Made by a program: the position numbers and the translations under genes. The notes beneath the pieces are model-generated. The model searched no databases. It saw only the letters and a list, made by a program, of their open reading frames with translations, and was not told the DNA's origin. A stretch of 63,998 nt of DNA, filler included, from Theionarchaea archaeon (lineage in GTDB: Archaea; Methanobacteriota_B; Thermococci; Methanofastidiosales; SZ-28-30): the NCBI GenBank assembly GCA_018992565.1. It is 7 parts of 7 records of this genome, joined end to end, with 100 filler letters (N's around TTAATTAATTAA, not from the genome) between each part and the next. Parts side by side here need not be neighbours in the genome. Positions count along the whole stretch, not along the records: positions 1 to 9,959 come from JACVGW010000090.1; 6 more parts are not named here. One strand, 5' to 3'. Positions 1 through 9,959 of this stretch are shown here, piece by piece (positions within the stretch are counted from its first letter, which is position 1; each line of letters starts with the position of its first letter).

Positions 1-822
1 AGGACTGTCCAGGATACAGATACAGCTATCCTGGAGCTAGATGACGCAGTACGTGAAAGTACTGCCGCTCTGGATTGCGGAAAGGTGAGACCTTCTGCAT
101 CTGGGTTAGTTAAGAAATGCCTCTGGACTGGTAAGAGATGCATCAGGACTGGTAAGAGATGCATCTGGACTGGTAAGAGATGCTACAGGACTGGTCACAG
201 ATGATGAGACTGCTTTTATGTACCGGGGATTGACCGAGGCTGTTCAGGATCTGTCACGAGGGACTGTCCAGTTTTCATGGTATGTGAGACGAGTTGTTAC
301 CCTGGCAGAGACTGCAGATGTATCAACATTACTCCAGGATGTGACTGGACTGGAACTGTCGATAGTTGTGATCGTTCGTATTTCCGGGATATATTTCCTG
401 AGAAATGGCTGAAAGAGTACCTGGGAGAGCTTAAGGAAGTATGGAACCTGAACGTGAAATGTGATGGAGGTAGTTGTGAAATAGAGGAGGATTATACTTG
501 GTTCTTCTCGGAAAGGGTTCCATATATTTTAGAGGGAGATAACGAGGTAGATGCGGGGAAAAAGGACGAAGGTGCAGGGAACTGTGAAAGTTCCGTAAAT
601 GGTCATAATTTGGAGGAAAAGAAGGGAGAATGTGTAGTAAAAGGACAGAGACTTTTGATCGAGCATGATGAGGAGACTGTTCTACAGCAGATTCCACAGG
701 ATGATACGAGGATTGAGGATGTGTTGAAGAGGTTTAAAGACCAAAATAGGGTTGTGGACACGTTGGCAGTGTTACAGGATAGGGGGAAGATCATTGCTGG
801 CCAGGGAATATGGGGAGGTTAG
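1..822 (+). pseudogene. 5'-truncated hypothetical gene with two apparent compensating frameshifts (about 111 and about 350-380)
   Basis: Frame 1 reads ...VRPSASGLV; frame 2 continues NASGLVRDASGLVRDASGLVRDATGLV...; frame 1 resumes protein-like (YFRDIFPEKWLKEYLGELKEVW) to the stop at 822. Frame 1 has TGA TGA at 202-207. Confidence 0.45.
96..201 (+). repeat. Five-copy 21-nt tandem repeat (tgcatctggactggtaagaga), encoding DASGLVR
   Basis: Units at 96-117 (22 nt), 118-138, 139-159, 160-180 and 181-201. Differences are mostly synonymous in the DASGLVR frame. Confidence 0.9.
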
Positions 823-946
823 TGGCACCTGGAGTGGAGAGTCTTGATGGTGATGTATCGAGGTTGAGTAGGTGGATATGTACTCCTCGTCGATGATATC
901 ATTGAGTGATAGGAACCCCTTTATATTCTCACGATTAGTTCATTCC

Positions 947-1756
947 ATGATTCAAGCAAAGGATGCTCGAGAGGAAGTTGACTGGTCCAAATGGTACAAT
1001 TTCCAAGGTCGTATGGGTATTCCTCTTATCCACTTGGGCGGAACAAGAGCAACCACAGATCTCTTGGCCATCTGTAACCTTTCTGAAAAGAGTGAGGTGC
1101 TCGATGTGGGATGTGGCACAGGATACACGGCATGTGAGATTGCACAAAAGTACAGCGCTCATGTTGTCGGTATCGATGTCTCCGAAGACATGGTTGCAAA
1201 GGCACAGGAGAGAGCACGTCAAGACCACCTGAAATCAGTTGAATTTCACGTTGCTGATGTGTTGGAGCTCCCATTTCAGGATGAAATCTTTGACACGGTC
1301 ATCATGGAATCAGTCCTCATCGTCTTACCTGGTGAAAAGCGTGACGCTCTGACTGAAGTTGTGAGGGTTCTCAAACCAGGAGGGGTAGTGGGCGCAAACG
1401 AGGATTTTGCACGTAGTGAAACGCCTGATGAAGTTCTGGATTGTCTCGCTGCTGCATTACCTCACATGAGCCTTTTAACTCCTCAGGATTTGAGGAAGCT
1501 CTTTGAAGACTCAGGGTTAGAAGTCATACACTGTATGGAGAACTCATCAAGAGGTGTGATCACTCCAGGAGAAGTGGTGAACATCATCAAGACAATGGGC
1601 GTGGGTAGACTCCTGTCGTACTCTCTAAGGTCAGTAGTTGACCCAGAAATCCGAATGCTTGCTAGGCACTACCGGGAAGGTTCAAATATTATGATTAAAC
1701 GTAAGGATACCAGGGATTTCTTTGGTTATGCTTTGATTGTTGGCAGAAAAGTATGA
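947..1756 (+). CDS. Class I SAM-dependent methyltransferase
   Basis: VLDVGCGTG motif I, GIDVS, ADVLELPF, RVLKPGG. ATG 947 lies downstream of TTTATATT at about 920; the ORF is open from 872. Confidence 0.9.
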   Translation: MIQAKDAREEVDWSKWYNFQGRMGIPLIHLGGTRATTDLLAICNLSEKSEVLDVGCGTGYTACEIAQKYSAHVVGIDVSEDMVAKAQERARQDHLKSVEFHVADVLELPFQDEIFDTVIMESVLIVLPGEKRDALTEVVRVLKPGGVVGANEDFARSETPDEVLDCLAAALPHMSLLTPQDLRKLFEDSGLEVIHCMENSSRGVITPGEVVNIIKTMGVGRLLSYSLRSVVDPEIRMLARHYREGSNIMIKRKDTRDFFGYALIVGRKV

Positions 1757-2077
1757 TACTACAGGTTATTGGCTACTTTCAAGTGCTTTGAACGTTGCTA
1801 TCTGGTAGGAGTAGCAAGATATCCTATTCATAATACCTCAATAGGCAGTTATGATGAATATTACCAGAGTCCTAAATATCTGATGATCTTCCTTTTCCTT
1901 CCATTCGCTCAATGTCTTAATTTAATCATTCAGATTTTGAAATGATCTAGAAGTGATCTGTTTTGCTTTTTTGAGACTATCTATCTCCACGTCATGAGCA
2001 AAGACATTTCGAATGTTCCTAATGGGCTGGAGTCATACAACCCCAGGGATGCCATCAAAAAAGGAAGGACAGCTCCA

Positions 2078-3382
2078 TTAGTTTCCCTCAGAGAATATGT
2101 GATCTGTAATCTTCTTCTTCCGTGCGATTCGGAGCACTTCCTTGATGAAGTCACTGGCGCCACACACACAGAAATCATTGAACATGGAATAGGAAAGAGC
2201 GGCACAACGGAAGTTGCACACATCTTCAACATCGCACGTTTTACATTCGGAAAAAGAATCCTTCGTAATCTGTCTGAATGCAGTCCCACCTCTCCCATTT
2301 TCCCAGATTTCCTTAAACGATTCATCTCTCAAGTTTCCCATGCAAAATTCCTCCAGCGCTGCAGTATCAGCGCACGGGTACACATTGCCGTCAAATCTCA
2401 CCCAGACATCAGTTCTGGCACCTTCACAGGCGAGAAAAGCTCTCTGGAAAAGCTCTGGCATATCATCCACATGGAGAGGATGCGGGCCTCCATACAGGTT
2501 TCGATCCCGTGATTTCACACGACGAATCTTGAGTTCTCTCATCCTGATGAAATCGTCTGCATCTTCCTTCCTGAGCCAGAGTTGCTTTTGATGTTCAGAA
2601 GATCTTCCAAATGGAAGTACAGGACTAAGGCTCACTTTTATCCCTCTGTCCAGCCAGTGTGTCATCAGTCGTTCTGCTTCCCCTTTGTTAATCTGGCACA
2701 TGGTAACATTGATTCCAAACTTGGTTCCTTCCCTCAGGAACATTTCTACAACTTCTGCAGTCCTGGCAAATGAGCCCTTTCCCCGTATCCTGTCATGGGT
2801 CTCCTGGAACCCATCAAGACTCACACCAAACTTGATATTTCTTGGGATAAGCTGAAAGATGTCCTCTGTTATGAGAGTGGCATTGGTGATCACGTACTGC
2901 TGGAGGCCAACCTCATTTCCATAATTCAGGATTTCAACGATGTCTTCTCTCATGAAGGGCTCTCCTCCCGAGATGTTTACCTTAAAGACCTTCATGTCAG
3001 CCCATTCATCATACAGGGCTTTGATCTCCTCAGTTGTGAGCTCATCTGGATGCTTCTTCCCTGCTGCGAACAGGCAGTGTGGGCAGTTCAAGTTGCAGGC
3101 ATGAGTGACCTCAATGCAGGTTGTAATAGGTGCTGAAAGATGTGTGCATTCACCATCAAACTCAAATGCTTTGAGCTGAAATGGAGTGCAATCCATGGAT
3201 TTCTTCTCACCTGGAATCATGCCCACATTTGTGAGATACTGCATGAGGGGCTCATCTGTATCTCCCTTCTCAATACTCTGGAGAGTTTCCTCATTGATGA
3301 AGAATATTGAGGCATCTGCATTGATCATGAGTCCTCCAAAATGCTCTCTCCTACAAGCACAATACTTATTGAATTCGACCAT
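2078..3382 (-). CDS. Radical SAM/SPASM peptide maturase with N-terminal RRE-like domain (MftC/PqqE-like)
   Basis: CNLNCPHC, SGGEP, SLDG, SPASM cysteines CEGAR..YPC..CKTC..CNFRC..CVC; N-terminal RREHFGGLMIN. ATG 3382 follows AGGTG (ORF track starts at GTG 3391). Confidence 0.9.
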   Translation of the reverse strand: MVEFNKYCACRREHFGGLMINADASIFFINEETLQSIEKGDTDEPLMQYLTNVGMIPGEKKSMDCTPFQLKAFEFDGECTHLSAPITTCIEVTHACNLNCPHCLFAAGKKHPDELTTEEIKALYDEWADMKVFKVNISGGEPFMREDIVEILNYGNEVGLQQYVITNATLITEDIFQLIPRNIKFGVSLDGFQETHDRIRGKGSFARTAEVVEMFLREGTKFGINVTMCQINKGEAERLMTHWLDRGIKVSLSPVLPFGRSSEHQKQLWLRKEDADDFIRMRELKIRRVKSRDRNLYGGPHPLHVDDMPELFQRAFLACEGARTDVWVRFDGNVYPCADTAALEEFCMGNLRDESFKEIWENGRGGTAFRQITKDSFSECKTCDVEDVCNFRCAALSYSMFNDFCVCGASDFIKEVLRIARKKKITDHIFSEGN

Positions 3383-3407
3383 TATTAGCACCTGGTTTAA
3401 AAGAAAT

Positions 3408-3415
3408 AAAAAAAA
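3408..3415 (-). terminator. T8 tract between the precursor and maturase genes
   Basis: A8 on the plus strand, starting 3 nt after the precursor stop codon. Confidence 0.55.
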
Positions 3416-3418
3416 GAT

Positions 3419-3514
3419 TTAGGGGGCCCAGACTATACCGCCCTTTGGAAACACAATTGGGTTCACACTTCCGATCACAATTGTCCTCTTCATCGGCAGA
3501 ATTGTCTTCCTCAT
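3419..3514 (-). CDS. Putative RiPP precursor peptide, 31 aa, MRKTILPMKRTIVIGSVNPIVFPKGGIVWAP
   Basis: Translated by hand. GGAGGTGA RBS 6 nt before the ATG, TATA box upstream, co-oriented just 5' of the rSAM/SPASM gene. Confidence 0.85.
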   Translation of the reverse strand: MRKTILPMKRTIVIGSVNPIVFPKGGIVWAP

Positions 3515-3520
3515 CTGTTT

Positions 3521-3558
3521 TCACCTCCGATTCCAAGTGCCTCCCGTTTCTATATAAA
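3521..3558 (-). promoter_or_regulatory. TATA box (TTTATATAGA, 3549-3558) and RBS (GGAGGTGA, 3521-3528) of the precursor gene
   Basis: Direct motif match with archaeal spacing. Confidence 0.75.
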
Positions 3559-4208
3559 TCTTTCTATTAGATCAACCCTCAAAAGAAAGAGACACTATCC
3601 TGTATGGAAGATAGTGAGACTTCGAGACAGAATTACTCTTCCATCAATTTAGATATTGTAGGCTAATAGCAGTTAGTCCTTCTAAAATCATGGAGTCTTC
3701 ATTTAAGTACTCCTCTGGAGCACGTTCCTTCTTGACCTACTGCTTTCTCACTTCCCTCAATCAGAATCACTTCAGGTTCAGTATCCTTTCTGATTCTTCA
3801 TTCATTCCCAGATATCTCATTCAAAAGATGTTGATAGACTGTTTATGGGTCATACAAAAGTGTTTGGTCCTGCTTTCTGTGATGTTGTATAGGCCTGGCA
3901 GTGCGTGCTGTGAATAGTGTGGGTTGCAACTCCTGTCCTTGCGTATAATTCAGACAGTAGCCTTACCTAAAGCCGTGGATAGTCCACAAAGGTCAGTGAG
4001 AGCAGCAATCTATGGAGCTTTTGTCTGATTGCACAGTGAAAAAGCACATCCTCACGGAAACATTTAAAAGCACATGAAGTATAAAGCTTCTGTGACCTCA
4101 AAGGTCTCTCTTGTGAGCGATTTGAGCACATCATACTGCGCCATTTTTCAGGCGTCTTAGAAAGAAATCAAGATTACCAACCATAAAGAACGATATGGAG
4201 ATGTGACT

Positions 4209-4670
4209 ATGTCTGAATTCAAGGGTATCGTGCGCATACATGGCACTGATCTCAAAGGAGATAGAAATTTGGAACTGGCCCTCACAGGTATCAGAGGAAT
4301 CGGCACCATGATGGCAAGGGGAATAGCCAACACCATCCAGGTCGATCCCAGGGAGAAACTGGGAAATCTCTCAGATGAGAAGATTGAGGAGATTGAAGAA
4401 ATCCTCAGGAATCCTTCCGAAAATGGGATACCTCACTGGATGCTCAACAGACGACGTGATTACTATTCCGGGGAGGACGCTCACCTGGTGGGTGCTGACC
4501 TTATCATGGCTCTCAGGGAAGATCTCAACAGACTCAGGAAGACTCGCTCTTACCGTGGGATTCGTCATGAGTCTGGACTGCCAGTGAGGGGACAGCGAAC
4601 CAAGTCCAGCTTCCGTACAGGGAGAACAATCGGTGTAAGCCGGAAGAAGGCCAAGGAGAAGAAGAGGTGA
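4209..4670 (+). CDS. rps13: 30S ribosomal protein S13
   Basis: [38 protein letters not shown]. Confidence 0.98.
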
Positions 4671-4674
4671 TTGC

Positions 4675-5151
4675 ATGGGAGATCCCAAGAAACCCAGAAA
4701 ATCCTATGATACTCCTTCTCACCCCTGGAGAAAGGAGAGAATAGAACTTGAAAAGGAGATGGCCAGAAAATACGGGCTCAAGAACAAGAAAGACATATGG
4801 AAGGCTGAATCCAGACTGCGGAGCATCAGAAGACTGGCCAGAAACCTCCTCGGTTCACATGGGGAACAGGCAGAACAGGAAGAGGAAAAACTCATGGCCA
4901 AACTGCAGAAACTCGGATTGCTGAAAGGAGATGCTGACCTTGATTCTGTTCTGGGATTGACCATAGAAGACATTCTGGAGCGCCGTCTCCAGTCGCTGGT
5001 CCACAGGAAAGGCCTTGCTCAGAGTCCCAAGCATGCCAGGCAGCTGGTTGTACATGGTCATGTCCGGGTGGGAGGAAGACGTATTACCTCTCCAAGTTAT
5101 CTGGTTCCTGTAGAACAGGAAGAGACTATCATCAGTGAGGTGTCTTCATGA
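4675..5151 (+). CDS. rps4: 30S ribosomal protein S4 (archaeal type)
   Basis: [35 protein letters not shown]. Confidence 0.98.
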
Positions 5152-5537
5152 AGAAAGAAGGATGGGGTGTTGCCCACATTTTCGCTTCATTCAACAACAC
5201 GATAGTTCATATTACTGATTTGACAGGTGCAGAAACCATCTCCATGGTGTCTGGTGGCATGATTGTCAAGTCTGACAGGGAGGAATCTTCTCCCTATGCA
5301 GCAATGAAGGCTGCATTCCAGGCAGCAGATCAGGCGCTGGAGAAAGGTATTGTGGGTGTTCACATAAAAGTGAGAGCGCCAGGTGGAAGCAGGATGAAAA
5401 ACCCAGGACCAGGAGCTCAGGCTGCAATTCGTGCTCTATCCAGGGCCCGGCTGAAAATTGGATCCATAGAAGATGTTACTCCCATCCCCCATGATGGTAC
5501 AAAGCCCAAAGGGGGAAAACGCGGAAGAAGGGTCTGA
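5148..5537 (+). CDS. rps11: 30S ribosomal protein S11
   Basis: [36 protein letters not shown]. Confidence 0.98.
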
Positions 5538-5539
5538 TT

Positions 5540-6322
5540 ATGGAACTACGTGTATTGCACCGGGGAGACGACAACGTCCGATTTGTCATAGAAGGAGTAA
5601 GTGCTGCCTTTGTCAATGGGCTGCGCAGGACATTAGTCAGTGGAATCCCCACGTTTGCTGTGGATTACGTGATGTTTTATGCCAATACCTCCCCTCTCTA
5701 TGATGAGATCATTGCCCATCGTCTGGGAATGGTCCCCCTGACCACTGAGACCACCCGCTACATCCCCAAGGACCAGTGCTGCCAGGACGGGTGTGAGAAA
5801 TGCTCTGTCACCTTGAGCCTCTCTAAAGAGGGTCCCTGCACAGTAATGTCGGGAGATCTTATCAGTGAGGATTCAGATGTGGTTCCCGTCTTTGAGAATA
5901 TCCCACTGGTGAAACTGGGACCAGATCAGAAGCTGACTCTCAATGCTATTGCACGCATGGGGTATGCCAGAGACCATGCCAAGTGGCAGGCAGCCTTAGC
6001 CTCTTTCCAGCACGTGGCCCATATCACTGTTGACACTGATATGTGCGATGTGGGAGGAGCCTGCATCAAGGAATGTCCCCGGGGAGTCTTGGATGTCATG
6101 GGTGATGAGTTGGTTCCCAAGTACCTGTACAACTGTACTCTGTGTGGGGCGTGCACAGATGTATGCGATTTTGATGCTATAAAAGTAGAACCGGTAGAAG
6201 ATAGCTTTATCTTTACACTGGAATCATTCGGCAACATGTCCATTGATGCCTTGATAGAAGAAGTAGTCCGCATTTTCAATGGGAAGGCAGATTCATTGTT
6301 GGAAGAAGTGGAAAAGCTGTAG
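5540..6322 (+). CDS. rpoD: RNA polymerase subunit D (Rpo3) with ferredoxin-like insert
   Basis: NGLRR, YDEIIAHRLGMVPL, HAKWQ, CTLCGACTDVC; position in the operon. Confidence 0.97.
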   Translation: MELRVLHRGDDNVRFVIEGVSAAFVNGLRRTLVSGIPTFAVDYVMFYANTSPLYDEIIAHRLGMVPLTTETTRYIPKDQCCQDGCEKCSVTLSLSKEGPCTVMSGDLISEDSDVVPVFENIPLVKLGPDQKLTLNAIARMGYARDHAKWQAALASFQHVAHITVDTDMCDVGGACIKECPRGVLDVMGDELVPKYLYNCTLCGACTDVCDFDAIKVEPVEDSFIFTLESFGNMSIDALIEEVVRIFNGKADSLLEEVEKL

Positions 6323-6701
6323 GTGTTTCGAGAGTGATAAGAGCCCATCTGTACTCCCATAATTCCTGAGGATCTTTTCCCTCTCAAAAGAGTCTCTCGA
6401 ACCTTACACTTCAATGAACACCAATCCCTGAAAGGGGACCCTCAATAATTGTACTACTTCTGGTGATTTCATGGAATACGTAACCCAGACAGGAAAGAAA
6501 AAGAACCTAATCTGAGAACCCCTCAGTGTCCTCTGGAATATACCAGTTTATACTTTTCCTTCTTGAGATCTGTGTTCCTGCCCTTTTCTTCATGCCGAGT
6601 ATCCACCTCCAGACTCTCTACACCTGGAGTGTTTGAAGAGATAGTGACTGTCTGCTCATGACAAAGGAAAGACTTATATTGGTGTAATCACCCTTTTCTG
6701 C

Positions 6702-7193
6702 ATGGAGAAAGATGTGGAATACGACCTGGAAGAATTCATCAGAAAGGCTAGAGGACGTCAGACTGAGTACGAGGAGCCACCGTATGATGAGACAACATTC
6801 AGAAATTTCAGGAGATTTTCTAACCTGGAGGAGTACCACGACTATTACCAGCAGATAAAGGTGTGCAAGGCCATTCTGAATGATATCAGATCCAAGTCCC
6901 ACTTCTTGTCTAAGATGGAGAAGTATTCCCCAGGTGTTGCTGCCCTCTCCATTGAGGACATAATAAAGGTCAGGTATAGTGCAGAAGAAGAATCATACAT
7001 TATCTATACTGATGGAACGACATTTGACATTTATGAGGATGATATCAAGTATATCTACCCTTCAATTGTTGATGTTCCCGACTCTTATGAGTTTGAGGTA
7101 GTAATAGATGACTCTTCAGTGTATGTGTACAATAAATTTACTGCAGATCAGCCTTTCAGGGTCTTTGGGGCGGCAGAGGCTGCTGAAGAGTAG
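6702..7193 (+). CDS. Hypothetical acidic protein
   Basis: 163-aa ORF with protein-like composition; no recognised motif. Confidence 0.7.
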   Translation: MEKDVEYDLEEFIRKARGRQTEYEEPPYDETTFRNFRRFSNLEEYHDYYQQIKVCKAILNDIRSKSHFLSKMEKYSPGVAALSIEDIIKVRYSAEEESYIIYTDGTTFDIYEDDIKYIYPSIVDVPDSYEFEVVIDDSSVYVYNKFTADQPFRVFGAAEAAEE

Positions 7194-8271
7194 AAAAAGC
7201 AAGAGAATAGAGATCGCTTGTGAGAGTCTTGATGCCTTCCAGGATAATTTCTGCTTCATTAGCATCCGGTCCCAGCTTTCGCACCTGCAGAGCCAGGGTC
7301 TGAGCACGGTTGGGGATATCGGGAATAGCTCTAATAGACTGCTGAGACTCAAGAAAGGCGACTAACGTGAAGCAGGCCTGGAAGAAGTAGGCCAACCGTT
7401 CAGGATCATACATTTTTTCTCCAATTTTCCACTGAAAATTCTGCAGTCCAAGAGCGGCCAATCTGCCATTGGATATCCACCGTTTCACATCTTTGACCCA
7501 GGTTCGCTTTTCAGTGCCAGTGATTGGAGAACCTGTAAGTTCCAGATGATATCCTCGTGGAGGAATCCTGGAAAGTAGGGTTACAAGTTCTCGATTGGCT
7601 TCGGGGAAGTAGGGGTGTTCAAAATGAGGTCCAAACAGGTAGAGGCAACCTCTGGAGACCTTTTTTGTTACGAGGGCTTTTTTTCCCAGGAGAGCTTGTG
7701 TTGCTGCCTCTTTCTCACAGAGAAACATGGTTTTGGGAGTGAAGTTGGTGTACGAGGCCTGGGACTCAGCATCTGCAGAGAGAATTCCCGGCCCCCCATA
7801 CAAAGGTGCCTGTATTATGGCCCCATTGTAGTTCAAAGTGATAGCTTCCCTCACCGGGTGGAATACATACCCATCCCTGTATCTCACCAGGTACTTGTGG
7901 GGCATTCGAATGTTGGGAGGAGGTTCAACTGCGAAATTCGAGATCTCTCCCCTCACCAGGTTGAGCCAGGGGTAAGGGTCATCATGAAACTTGAGGGCAA
8001 AATACGTTCCTGCGCAGATCCCAATGTAGGTTCCCCCCTTCTCAACGAAGGAACGCATCCTGGAGACACCTTCTCTCCCGATATGAGAAAAGAGGGCAAA
8101 AGGATCACCTCCCGAAACCACAAGAACGTCTGCTGCTATATCCCTGACGTCAGTTATGAATTCAATGGTGATAATCCCATGGGATCTCAGCGTATCAACA
8201 AACCAGATCCATGAATGGGAAGCTCCCTTGCCAGTATAGAGTGCGATCTTCAGAGGTCGTTCAGGGGTCAT
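7156..8271 (-). CDS. BPL_N / class I glutamine amidotransferase-like domain protein
   Basis: LVVSGGD, GGTYIGICAG nucleophile elbow, GPHFE. Confidence 0.8.
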   Translation of the reverse strand: MTPERPLKIALYTGKGASHSWIWFVDTLRSHGIITIEFITDVRDIAADVLVVSGGDPFALFSHIGREGVSRMRSFVEKGGTYIGICAGTYFALKFHDDPYPWLNLVRGEISNFAVEPPPNIRMPHKYLVRYRDGYVFHPVREAITLNYNGAIIQAPLYGGPGILSADAESQASYTNFTPKTMFLCEKEAATQALLGKKALVTKKVSRGCLYLFGPHFEHPYFPEANRELVTLLSRIPPRGYHLELTGSPITGTEKRTWVKDVKRWISNGRLAALGLQNFQWKIGEKMYDPERLAYFFQACFTLVAFLESQQSIRAIPDIPNRAQTLALQVRKLGPDANEAEIILEGIKTLTSDLYSLAFSTLQQPLPPQRP

Positions 8272-9356
8272 AGACGAGATACAGCATCGTCCAGGGTCTC
8301 GGCAGAGATGTCCAATCCCGTACCTGCTGCAACGGCTCGAACAGCAGCGTCCTCATCAATGCCAAATTGATCCAGTATGGGACACACTCCGAGGGTGTAG
8401 TACCAACCTTCTTTGCCTTCCAGAGGCTGAACAGGCTGTGGCCCCAGGGTTGTCAGTGCCTTGGGATCTTTTCCGTATGCGGGATTGACGCCCAGCTGGT
8501 AGCAGGTCTGAAGAGTTTCTGCAGCCTTCTTAACGTCGAGACCGTGTGCCATCAAATCTCTCAAATGCCTCTCAAAGATGACCACACCCTCGTCTGTACC
8601 AGTCTTGACAAAATTCCTGCAGGCATACGGGCAGTTGAAACACGCGTCAGCTCTCTGAGTAATAGCATCCAGTCCTTCAACGGGGGCTCCTCTCTTCTTT
8701 ATTTTGGACTTCAGCCCGGTCAGAGCATCTTCAGCTGCAGAGATGAAGTCCTCTGGCTCTGAAATCTCCACTTCCCCCATTCCTCTCATGGCTATCCCTT
8801 TGACGTTTTTCTCTCCCAGCAGTGCTGCGAGCCCATTTCTATCATCAGTTCCCCAGTAGTTGTTCACCAGGAGGGCTGCTCCAGATTTCTTCTCTCCTCC
8901 TTCACCGATTACCAGAGTCTGAATCCGGTCTTCACCCAGTTCTTCCCTCAACCACGATGTGGTATCCCAGGTGGTCTTTCCCCATAAATCAGTGGATTCA
9001 ATATCAGCGATCTCATCATGTAACCACAGGTAAACAGGGTTCTCAGCCTTACCTTTCAGTACAACAAAGCTGAATCCCGACAATTTCAATTCCGGTCCAG
9101 AAAACCAGTTGAACGCAGAGTGACACACTGTTCCATTTTTCTTGGCTGTCATGACACCAAGAGCGGAACCAGGGAATAGTGTCCCTGTGAGAACACCTGT
9201 TCCGAGAACAACAGCATCAGGATACTGGGCCAGCAATGCAGTATTGGCACACGCTCCTCCAATATTCTTCTCAATAAACTCTTCTTCAATGTCTACTTCT
9301 TCCACTTCGCCTTCTTCCAAATCTACAACCGCAATTAGATCAGTGTACAATTCCAT
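8268..9356 (-). CDS. Shortened aldehyde:ferredoxin oxidoreductase (AOR)-like protein
   Basis: GPELKLSG, LKGKAENPVYL, LWGKTT, GEKNVKGIA, ACFNCPYAC. ATG 9356 follows GGAGGTG. Confidence 0.8.
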   Translation of the reverse strand: MELYTDLIAVVDLEEGEVEEVDIEEEFIEKNIGGACANTALLAQYPDAVVLGTGVLTGTLFPGSALGVMTAKKNGTVCHSAFNWFSGPELKLSGFSFVVLKGKAENPVYLWLHDEIADIESTDLWGKTTWDTTSWLREELGEDRIQTLVIGEGGEKKSGAALLVNNYWGTDDRNGLAALLGEKNVKGIAMRGMGEVEISEPEDFISAAEDALTGLKSKIKKRGAPVEGLDAITQRADACFNCPYACRNFVKTGTDEGVVIFERHLRDLMAHGLDVKKAAETLQTCYQLGVNPAYGKDPKALTTLGPQPVQPLEGKEGWYYTLGVCPILDQFGIDEDAAVRAVAAGTGLDISAETLDDAVSRL

Positions 9357-9358
9357 GC

Positions 9359-9694
9359 TCACACCTCCTTGAGGCAACCTGTTGGGCAGAATCGGACGCA
9401 CATGGCATTGGTGCAGTCATCACAGGGCTCTCTCAGCAGGATTGGTTTTCCTCCGCCACCAGTATCGCTTGATTCTCCCTCTTTCATTATTTCGACACCT
9501 TCGGGTCGTCCCAAGATGACTTCTCCTTCGCGTTTCAGCATGACACCGAAGTAGTTTCTTACCTCCTCTCTGTGCAGTATGATGCTGGATCGCATAGTTG
9601 TAAACACTTCTTCTTCTCTGTACAGACTGCAGGCCACTTCGCAGGCACCACATGCCGTACAGAGCTGGGGATCGATTTCTATCACTGTAATCAC
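9359..9694 (-). CDS. 4Fe-4S ferredoxin-like subunit
   Basis: CTACGACEVAC and CDDCTNAMCVRFCPTG. Confidence 0.85.
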   Translation of the reverse strand: MITVIEIDPQLCTACGACEVACSLYREEEVFTTMRSSIILHREEVRNYFGVMLKREGEVILGRPEGVEIMKEGESSDTGGGGKPILLREPCDDCTNAMCVRFCPTGCLKEV

Positions 9695-9885
9695 CTGACT
9701 TCACAGACTTATGACATAATATAAAGGTTTTCCATCTTTTTTTGGGTAGGTTGCAGGTGTAGATGTTGTCAGGAATGTACTGCTTCGTCAGCTGTTGAGG
9801 AAAATGGGCGATATCTAACGGTTGCAGTATGCGGTGCGATTGCGATTCGAAAGGTTTATATAGCCATGCCCACTCCATAAGAATA

Positions 9886-9959
9886 CCCGGCGTAGTTCAA
9901 TCTGGCAGAACGGCGGACTGTAGATCCGCATGTTGGTGGTTCAAATCCGCCCGCCGGGA
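9886..9959 (+). tRNA. tRNA-Tyr (GTA), intronless
   Basis: Acceptor CCCGGCG/CGCCGGG, anticodon arm GCGGA-CTGTAGA-TCCGC, GGTTCAAATCC, C1:G72 plus discriminator A; TTTATATA upstream. Confidence 0.96.

Follow-up and report, generated by a model that had tools for sequence, protein, structure and literature searches.

The stretch of DNA analysed here (63,998 nucleotides (nt), hereafter the window) comes from genome assembly GCA_018992565.1 of a Theionarchaea archaeon (G000; 2.8 Mb, 46.6% G+C) and consists of contig pieces joined by N, the single-contig part being positions 1-9959 only (contig C56). Wholly on the minus strand of this part lies a two-gene cassette of about 1.75 kb, in which a 31-codon open reading frame (ORF) is followed by the gene of a radical S-adenosylmethionine (SAM) enzyme with a SPASM domain. 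We propose that the cassette encodes a peptide that is made on the ribosome and modified after translation (RiPP), altered by radical SAM chemistry, and put the probability of this reading, with the mechanism proposed below, at roughly 0.6. That the small ORF and the enzyme are a real precursor-maturase pair is in itself highly probable. Systems of this kind, a precursor together with a radical SAM/SPASM enzyme carrying a fused recognition domain (e.g. SuiB, CteB), are well known; the peptide family and the enzyme clade described here are unnamed in Pfam and NCBIfam. An original prediction, made from the window alone, had read the locus as a RiPP precursor followed by its maturase. The sequence comparisons reported here support that reading, but mostly not its specific proposals on the chemistry.

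All elements named in the original prediction, a TATA box, a GGAGGTGA site, the 31-codon ORF, a T8 tract, a 36-nt spacer and a radical SAM/SPASM gene, are present on the minus strand. The features are arranged as follows; G001 is a genome of the same genus with a Theionarchaea label.

3551..3563, minus strand: BRE-like purine-rich AGAAAG and TATA box TTTATATA (TATA 3558..3551), 44 nt 5' of the peptide ATG.
3528..3521, minus strand: Shine-Dalgarno site GGAGGTGA, kept in G001, with 6 nt between it and the ATG at 3514.
3514..3419, minus strand: precursor peptide gene, 31 codons plus TAA (stop 3421..3419), encoding the Cys-free peptide MRKTILPMKRTIVIGSVNPIVFPKGGIVWAP.
3418..3383, minus strand: 36-nt spacer with the T8 tract (3415..3408), more T runs and AGGTG (3393..3389).
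3382..2078, minus strand: radical SAM/SPASM enzyme gene, ATG start, 434 amino acids (aa).
3382..3128, minus strand: N-terminal peptide-binding-like domain with the motif RREHFGGLMIN, three strands and two helices predicted.
3115..2666, minus strand: radical SAM core, CX3CX2C being C99, C103 and C106 in 437-aa numbering (Pfam PF04055, E 2.1e-21).
2428..2162, minus strand: SPASM domain with C322, C340, C383, C386, C392, C396 and C410 (Pfam PF13186, E 6.7e-12).
2161..2078, minus strand: C-terminal helix of the enzyme and stop codon.
3819..3515, minus strand: non-coding DNA at the upstream end of the block that G001 shares, holding the promoter and a stem-loop.

The ORF listing opens the enzyme at GTG 3391 (437 aa). 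Because this GTG lies inside AGGTG, the ribosome site of the enzyme gene, and because the NCBI orthologue P0002 (434 aa, MIEFNKY) begins at the equivalent of ATG 3382, the latter was taken as the start, which makes the spacer 36 nt long. The stretch formed by AGAAAG and TTTATATA is identical in G001 and is a putative archaeal promoter, the call being based on the archaeal promoter consensus; a sigma-70 promoter scan is unsuited to archaea. A 9-pair stem-loop at 3616..3593 lies 5' of the TATA box; in G001 it carries two changes, by which a pair is lost. Archaeal RNA polymerase is stopped by oligo-T tracts, and in RiPP operons a leaky terminator is often placed 3' of the precursor gene; the T8 tract, likewise identical in G001, may be such a leaky oligo-T terminator.

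These signals are rare, as both strands of the 2.8-Mb host genome together hold 154 runs of at least eight T, 219 copies of GGAGGTGA and 214 of TTTATATA. In this genome GGAGGTGA acts as a ribosome site: 115 of its 219 copies are followed by a start codon at a distance of 3-9 nt, and in 61 of these 115 cases the ORF so opened is at least 60 aa long. The arrangement of TATA box, ribosome site, ORF, T8 tract and enzyme gene is more than chance. The stretch occurs in DNA sequencing data (20 rows from 6 studies), with no RNA data set among those listed. Two of the four runs examined (23 listed) cover the peptide gene and reveal no difference there; the sole nearby change, T>G at 3407, falls in the spacer. 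These runs add nothing on selection or expression.

Judged by its conservation in G001 and in a more distant lineage (L093, see below), the small ORF looks like a real gene under selection that was missed by gene callers. In G001 the enzyme is 90% identical and is preceded by the same ORF, MKKVTLRMTRTIVIGSVNPIVFPKGGIVWAP, which is Cys-free like that of the window. The homologous DNA block reaches from 3819 to 2069 in the window (3575..5323 of locus L013 in G001) at 90.6% identity. It begins 305 nt before the peptide start and stops 9 nt past the enzyme stop, and synteny ends on both sides. Within the block, identity is 95.2% over peptide codons 11-31, whose three differences all fall at third positions and are synonymous; it is 82% for promoter region and spacer, and 78-88% for the far-upstream non-coding DNA. 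In the peptide frame six of the differing codons are synonymous and five non-synonymous, as against 2/9 and 2/8 in the other two frames. An overlapping 56-codon ORF, present in the window and in G001, was ruled out by these frame-wise codon differences.

Codons 1-10 (3514-3485, minus strand) are the least conserved part of the block, at 66.7% identity less conserved than the surrounding non-coding DNA. A duplicated basic heptad had been seen in the leader; G001 reads MKKVTLR/MTRTIVI at these places, and the claim is weak. Codon 8 is a second Met in both orthologues; a start there, which would lack its own ribosome site, would give a peptide of 24 residues, near the 25 of L093.

The second lineage is represented by the metagenome contig L093, whose enzyme is 37% identical over residues 5-432; an identical copy of one of its neighbour proteins carries the NCBI label 'Methanomicrobia archaeon'. 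Here, too, a small ORF precedes the enzyme gene, so that the precursor-then-maturase order claimed for the window is conserved at both orthologue loci read. The layout consists of a box GAAAGATTTATAAAG 39 nt 5' of the ATG, the ribosome site GGTGAT, a 25-codon ORF encoding MDETIKIKVESVDPIAWPIFGDVVC, which ends in Cys, a T6CT6AT5 spacer, GGTGA and the enzyme gene. Alignment of IVIGSVNPIVFPKGGIV (window) with IKVESVDPIAWPIFGDV (L093) gives a Smith-Waterman score of 32, a value also attained by 15 controls in a set of 11,499 small ORFs taken from every fetched locus, and by a single one of 4,000 ORFs 20-30 aa long. As the gap holds only three same-strand ORFs, the chance of such a likeness is roughly 0.001-0.004. 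The peptides have in common the motif SV[ND]PI[VA][FW]P (SVNPIVFP in the window), a tail x-x-G-x-V after the aromatic-Pro pair, and a hydrophobic alternation before the motif (T-I-V-I-G-S-V in the window, K-I-K-V-E-S-V in L093). I12, V17, I20 and V28 do not vary among the three peptides, and one position is always aromatic, F22 in the window and Trp in L093, flanked by Pro in both lineages. The pattern [ST][VIL][NDE]P[IVL][AVI][FWY]P matches at these three places only in a six-frame search of 172 loci. The L093 peptide does not conserve the net charge, the Lys, the second of the Trp residues, the Gly pair or the C-terminus (IVWAP in the window, DVVC in L093).

The small ORF might instead have a regulatory role ahead of the enzyme gene, coupling its translation with termination at the T tract, or might have arisen by chance, and the enzyme would then act on something else. 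An oligo-T tract directly after the ORF and ahead of the enzyme gene would suit such a leader. The ORF also ends Pro-stop, a poor termination context, and the enzyme's assignment to the RiPP recognition element (RRE) type stays below threshold. However, the peptide sequence is kept across enzymes 37% identical while the Pro-stop ending is not, the changes in codons 11-31 are without exception silent, and the closest solved relatives of the enzyme modify peptides. We consider this explanation very unlikely.

The second gene of the proposed pair encodes an enzyme in which Pfam recognises Radical_SAM at residues 93-242 and SPASM at residues 322-387. The CX3CX2C cysteines are invariant in all nine family members and in all 120 aligned homologues. 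All seven SPASM cysteines are invariant in the nine members as well, and would be enough for two auxiliary 4Fe-4S clusters. A search of 5.8 billion clusters defined the family as P0001-P0009 (978 to 354 bits), after which scores fall to 173 bits. An exhaustive search of 1.84 billion 50%-identity representatives returned six full-length members (P0006, P0009, P0261-P0264; 799-363 bits) and a second tier that aligns only from about position 60. In a quick maximum-likelihood tree of 46 rows, family and second tier form one clade (SH-aLRT 99, branch length 0.84), apart from the rows that JGI labels MftC, NirJ2 or AhbD.

The enzyme matches 84 NCBIfam families, none of the best 25 at its cut-off. 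The top match is MftC TIGR03962 (164.9 of the 265 bits required). The cofactor enzymes follow with AhbD at 126/500, NirJ2 at 123.9/500, NirJ1 at 113.9/650, AhbC at 107.8/650 and NirJ at 103.7/515. In the tree the enzyme does not cluster with the AhbD or NirJ2 rows, so that the grouping with AhbC/D or NirJ that would have counted against the original prediction is not seen. Peptide maturases score below their thresholds, too: StsB 121.8/625, WgkB NF050035 116.6/650, PqqE 98.1/381, DynA 94.8/450, PapB 86.8/340 and SCIFF maturase 80.8/425.

A full-length AlphaFold2 model (mean predicted local distance difference test, pLDDT, 93.2; predicted template modelling score, pTM, 0.92) was compared with solved structures. 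The nearest were SkfB (Z 28.6) and SuiB with bound SuiA (Z 27.4 over 366 residues, model 4..421 against chain 1..439), and the next CteB, anSME and ChlB, the last at Z 24.6 over the core only. In the sequence profile comparison SkfB was again on top (E 1.3e-27), and SuiB aligned from profile position 8. Going by the model, the best solved matches of the enzyme are peptide maturases.

The N-terminal domain had been likened to the MftB/PqqD type of RRE. In the full-length model, residues 1-85 form strands at 12-16, 19-23 and 28-32 and helices at 34-42 and 47-55 (pLDDT 86-96). A PqqD-type RRE has three helices, and the domain thus has one fewer. Several observations point to a resemblance. SuiB aligns structurally from residue 4 of the model, and the strand motif R-x-E-x-F-G-G is common to mycofactocin MftB and the window enzyme. 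Moreover, hhalign connects the family to R-x-E-x-F-G-G homologues (Prob 95%, over only 20 columns) and these in turn to PqqD-bearing ones (Prob 96.8%, 70 columns). An ESM Atlas model of residues 5-61 compared with a PqqD-family cluster gave TM scores of 0.66/0.56, which is a lead only. A word search for a stand-alone short homologue of the domain found none. The domain is probably MftB/PqqD-like in fold and role, though below the family thresholds.

These elements suggest the following mechanism. One promoter would drive a strongly translated 31-residue precursor. The oligo-T tract after its stop probably ends most transcripts, and the remainder would be read through into the maturase gene. 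Given a strong ribosome site for the peptide, a weaker one for the enzyme and the oligo-T tract between them, much peptide message and little enzyme message would result. The maturase would combine in one polypeptide a short MftB/PqqD-like domain with a radical SAM barrel and with a SPASM domain that has two further iron-sulfur clusters, and its N-terminal domain may grip the alternating hydrophobic TIVIGSV as an added beta-strand. It would then cleave SAM and abstract a hydrogen from an sp3 carbon within SV(N/D)PI(V/A)(F/W)P-x2-G-x-V. This carbon could be joined to the ring of the always-aromatic residue, giving a small cyclophane with a mass change of -2 Da.

A number of points weigh against this reading. 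That the enzyme modifies the peptide at all is a prediction. The three loci read represent two independent lineages, and if the positional prior is set aside the alignment score of 32 does not stand out, as 15 control ORFs attain it. The residue two after the aromatic one is Lys in the window and Ile in L093, and net charge is not conserved. Concerning the N-terminal domain, Pfam PqqD PF05402 matches none of the nine family members. The sole NCBIfam match of the isolated N-terminus is MftB TIGR03967 (residues 5-62 against profile positions 9-68 of 85), with E 0.013 and 15.8 bits against a cut-off of 33; it is found in two of four N-termini, those of the window and P0261 (E 0.045), and in neither L093 nor P0263. 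Folded alone, the domain reaches a pLDDT of 49. The claim of an MftB/PqqD-type RRE thus stands as a resemblance and not as a family assignment. A peptide-profile match in a further genome, G003 (E 0.015), is antisense to a tRNA-synthetase-like gene and was discarded as chance, from which it follows that short motif matches do arise by chance. Finally, the window cassette has no protease, exporter or immunity gene, so that trimming or export would have to come from genes elsewhere. In favour of the reading, a TldD/PmbA metalloprotease pair lies in L093 directly 5' of the peptide on the same strand (892-3557). Downstream on the other strand (6101-8671) there are two ABC-2 permease genes and an ABC ATPase gene, and a sugar-phosphate-isomerase-fold gene is also found downstream. 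The TldD/PmbA and ABC-2 genes could be the protease and exporter missing from the window cassette, a link that is merely suggestive because the window does not share those neighbours.

The scores for MftC and MftB bear on a further explanation, in which the peptide is a redox-cofactor precursor and the enzyme works as a fused MftB-MftC or PqqD-PqqE. Mycofactocin likewise pairs a radical SAM/SPASM enzyme with a peptide, some 30 residues long, whose gene lies just upstream, and the window precursor is about the length of MftA. MftC is, as stated, the best NCBIfam match of the enzyme and MftB the only one of its N-terminus. In the window, however, the N-terminal domain and the catalytic part are fused in one protein, both scores stay under their cut-offs (33 and 265 bits), and the clade is separate from the MftC-labelled rows. 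MftA ends in Gly-Val-Tyr, which the window peptide lacks. The peptide C-terminus is not conserved, and a fixed cofactor would not tolerate the switch between Phe and Trp at the aromatic position. The window neighbours are a class I methyltransferase gene and ORFs read by eye as ribosomal proteins, and no MftD/E/F-like genes are adjacent. The cassette is also patchy, its enzyme being found in only 2 of 61 relatives' genomes at E<=1e-60 (G000 included) and its flanks being variable. Taken together, we judge a cofactor role most improbable.

Within the RiPP reading, a cross-link at the aromatic residue F22 is a tentative assignment to which we give clearly less than an even chance, the reaction itself being predicted. 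We favour it because the aromatic-Pro position remains conserved and because links of this type are known: radical SAM enzymes join aromatic rings to sp3 carbons in three- to five-residue motifs, as one report describes (PMC11499958). Candidate ring partners of F22 would be residue 24 (a three-residue ring), N18, which precedes it at the four-residue spacing of streptide, or V28.

The main alternative to the cross-link is that the pair is real and aliphatic residues are altered, by L-to-D epimerisation of Val/Ile (YydG/EpeE), formation of cyclopropylglycine from Val (TvgB/TigE) or hydroxylation. Val and Ile abound in the conserved segment, four of them being invariant, the EpeE and TigE structures were matched by the model (Z 20.2 and 20.5), and a change from Phe to Trp is easier if the ring is not the reacting group. 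On the other hand, EpeE and TigE rank below SkfB and SuiB (Z 27-29), and the sequence match to YydG is limited to profile positions 86-167. The precursors of cyclopropyl systems carry TVGG repeats, which are absent here, and the position stays aromatic and Pro-flanked in both lineages. An aliphatic modification is in our view unlikely.

Comparison with characterised systems bears on the proposed cross-link and on the chemistry that had been put forward for the window peptide. Streptide loci are linked to quorum-sensing genes, none of which was found among the neighbours whose Pfam families were read. SuiB/StrB (PDB 5V1Q/5V1S/5V1T) has a matching architecture of RRE (in the window an RRE-like domain), radical SAM barrel and SPASM domain and is the best full-length structural match including the N-terminal domain. 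It acts on a short precursor with chemistry on an aromatic residue and not on Cys, as we propose for the window, yet identity is only 16-18%. The Lys-Trp cross-link suggested within KGGIVW by analogy to streptide finds no support, as K24 and W29 have no counterparts in L093 and their spacing is i+5 against i+4 in streptide. The suggestion of a three-residue cyclophane at FPK or WAP fared differently for its two sites: FPK is kept in position as WPI, while WAP is absent from the L093 peptide. A cleavage site at the double Gly is disfavoured as well, only one Gly being kept in L093 and no C39-type transporter lying nearby.

The aromatic-Pro-X element (FPK in the window, WPI in L093) resembles WPR, the motif of WprB, and the general aromatic-X-X motif of triceptide synthases such as ChlB and HtkB; all of these three-residue cyclophane synthases are auxiliary-cluster radical SAM enzymes like that of the window. 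The window family differs in having a single aromatic-Pro-X site with a differing third residue and no repeats. For WprB this comparison was made by description. WprB is reported to link Trp-C5 to Arg-C-gamma across Pro in WPR motifs, to be without the first auxiliary-cluster cysteines and to need a separate WprC (PMC11851443), whereas in the window family none of the seven cysteines is missing and the N-terminal domain is fused. Table S7 of the same report gives six relatives from archaea, together with a precursor family of the 'single WxR/K' type, with which the window family could overlap (PMC11851443). Such an overlap is unlikely because WprB lacks the first auxiliary-cluster cysteines that are kept here.

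SkfB makes a Cys-to-Met thioether, chemistry for which the window peptide has no Cys. As the top structural and profile match, SkfB (PDB 6EFN) is 19% identical, and the sequence match extends over profile positions 84-358 only. The absence of Cys pointed out in the original prediction is true of the window and G001; since the L093 peptide ends in Cys and the window peptide has none, the comparison speaks against a conserved thioether.

That the cross-link has an undescribed topology, founding a new and largely archaeal RiPP class from a minimal two-gene cassette, is a more speculative idea that we regard as rather unlikely. By analogy, one option would be a ring on Phe/Trp across the adjacent Pro, another a five-residue (Asn/Asp)-x-x-x-(Phe/Trp) ring like the Lys-x-x-x-Trp ring of streptide. 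If true, such a topology would be made with a shortened, fused MftB-like recognition domain.

Family loci were read in the window, G001 and L093, all three with a conserved small precursor gene upstream; P0003-P0008 and P0261-P0264 stand outside this set. Among the matches listed in contig scans of genomes and metagenomes, L013 and L093 are the only family loci. In the host's own phylum, a search with the enzyme profile at E<=1e-70 found 3 of 133 genomes, one of them with a paralogue. Searches with four candidates scored per genome, which say little, gave none in 400 genomes of the Asgard phylum and none in 401 sampled from the phylum of an Archaeoglobaceae genome. At the 14 of 160 distant loci that were checked, no upstream small ORF is like the peptide, and seven other paralogue loci hold nothing like it. 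Beside a paralogue in genome G002 (L175 2739-2811, minus strand), a TATA box and a GGTGAGGTGAT site precede a 24-codon ORF, MVEESEYTEDIGFPITCACGLLVA, with F-P-I. It was not accepted as a family peptide, its alignment scores of 14 and 20 not being significant, and is a lead only.

The neighbours of the cassette differ between genomes, which would fit a mobile unit of its own. On the upstream side, a beta-lactamase-fold gene in G001 stands in the place of an apparent ribosomal protein operon (read by eye) in the window; downstream in G001, a metallo-beta-lactamase-fold gene is inserted ahead of the methyltransferase gene common to both.

The window peptide has no Pfam or NCBIfam family match, so that it stands outside known families as had been claimed, and an ESM Atlas search with it gave no usable match. 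None of the three peptides has an exact match among 15 billion predicted proteins, which illustrates how gene callers miss such precursors. Title and abstract searches of the literature returned nothing describing the family, although word searches cannot find a family by its sequence. To our knowledge, few radical-SAM-modified archaeal peptides have been characterised. The sole experimentally studied archaeal SPASM case that we found concerns thioether links in a Methanococcus protein, described in a 2026 report (PMC13692751). With one 31-residue Cys-free peptide and one enzyme, the cassette is near minimal and therefore easily tested by co-expression, and the conserved motif indicates which residues to mutate.

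With 69 radical SAM/SPASM ORFs, and small ORFs preceded by a ribosome site in their dozens, the host genome marks Theionarchaea as a rich and unexplored reservoir of peptide chemistry. In G000, 41 GGAGGTGA-plus-start sites open small ORFs of 15-59 aa, several of them multi-copy. One family, beginning MEPRVEDYLDATCVASTGG, has six copies, two of which lie beside a row of five radical SAM genes on contig C119. There are also Cys-rich peptides of the form MKA[IL]..NKKLW... and a peptide in which CALEVQPTF occurs four times. Example contigs for radical SAM/SPASM genes and small ORFs are C119, C47, C33, C13, C29, C128, C132 and C133.

Two further observations concern the window itself. Between the cassette and an apparent ribosomal protein S13 gene, positions 3560-4200 form about 640 nt without a convincing gene, of which G001 shares the first 260 nt only. 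At 8268-9401 on the minus strand, a 377-aa ORF contains the N-terminal domain of aldehyde ferredoxin oxidoreductase (AOR; E 2.1e-37) with only a faint trace of the C-terminal domains, and is thus a short or split AOR-like gene.

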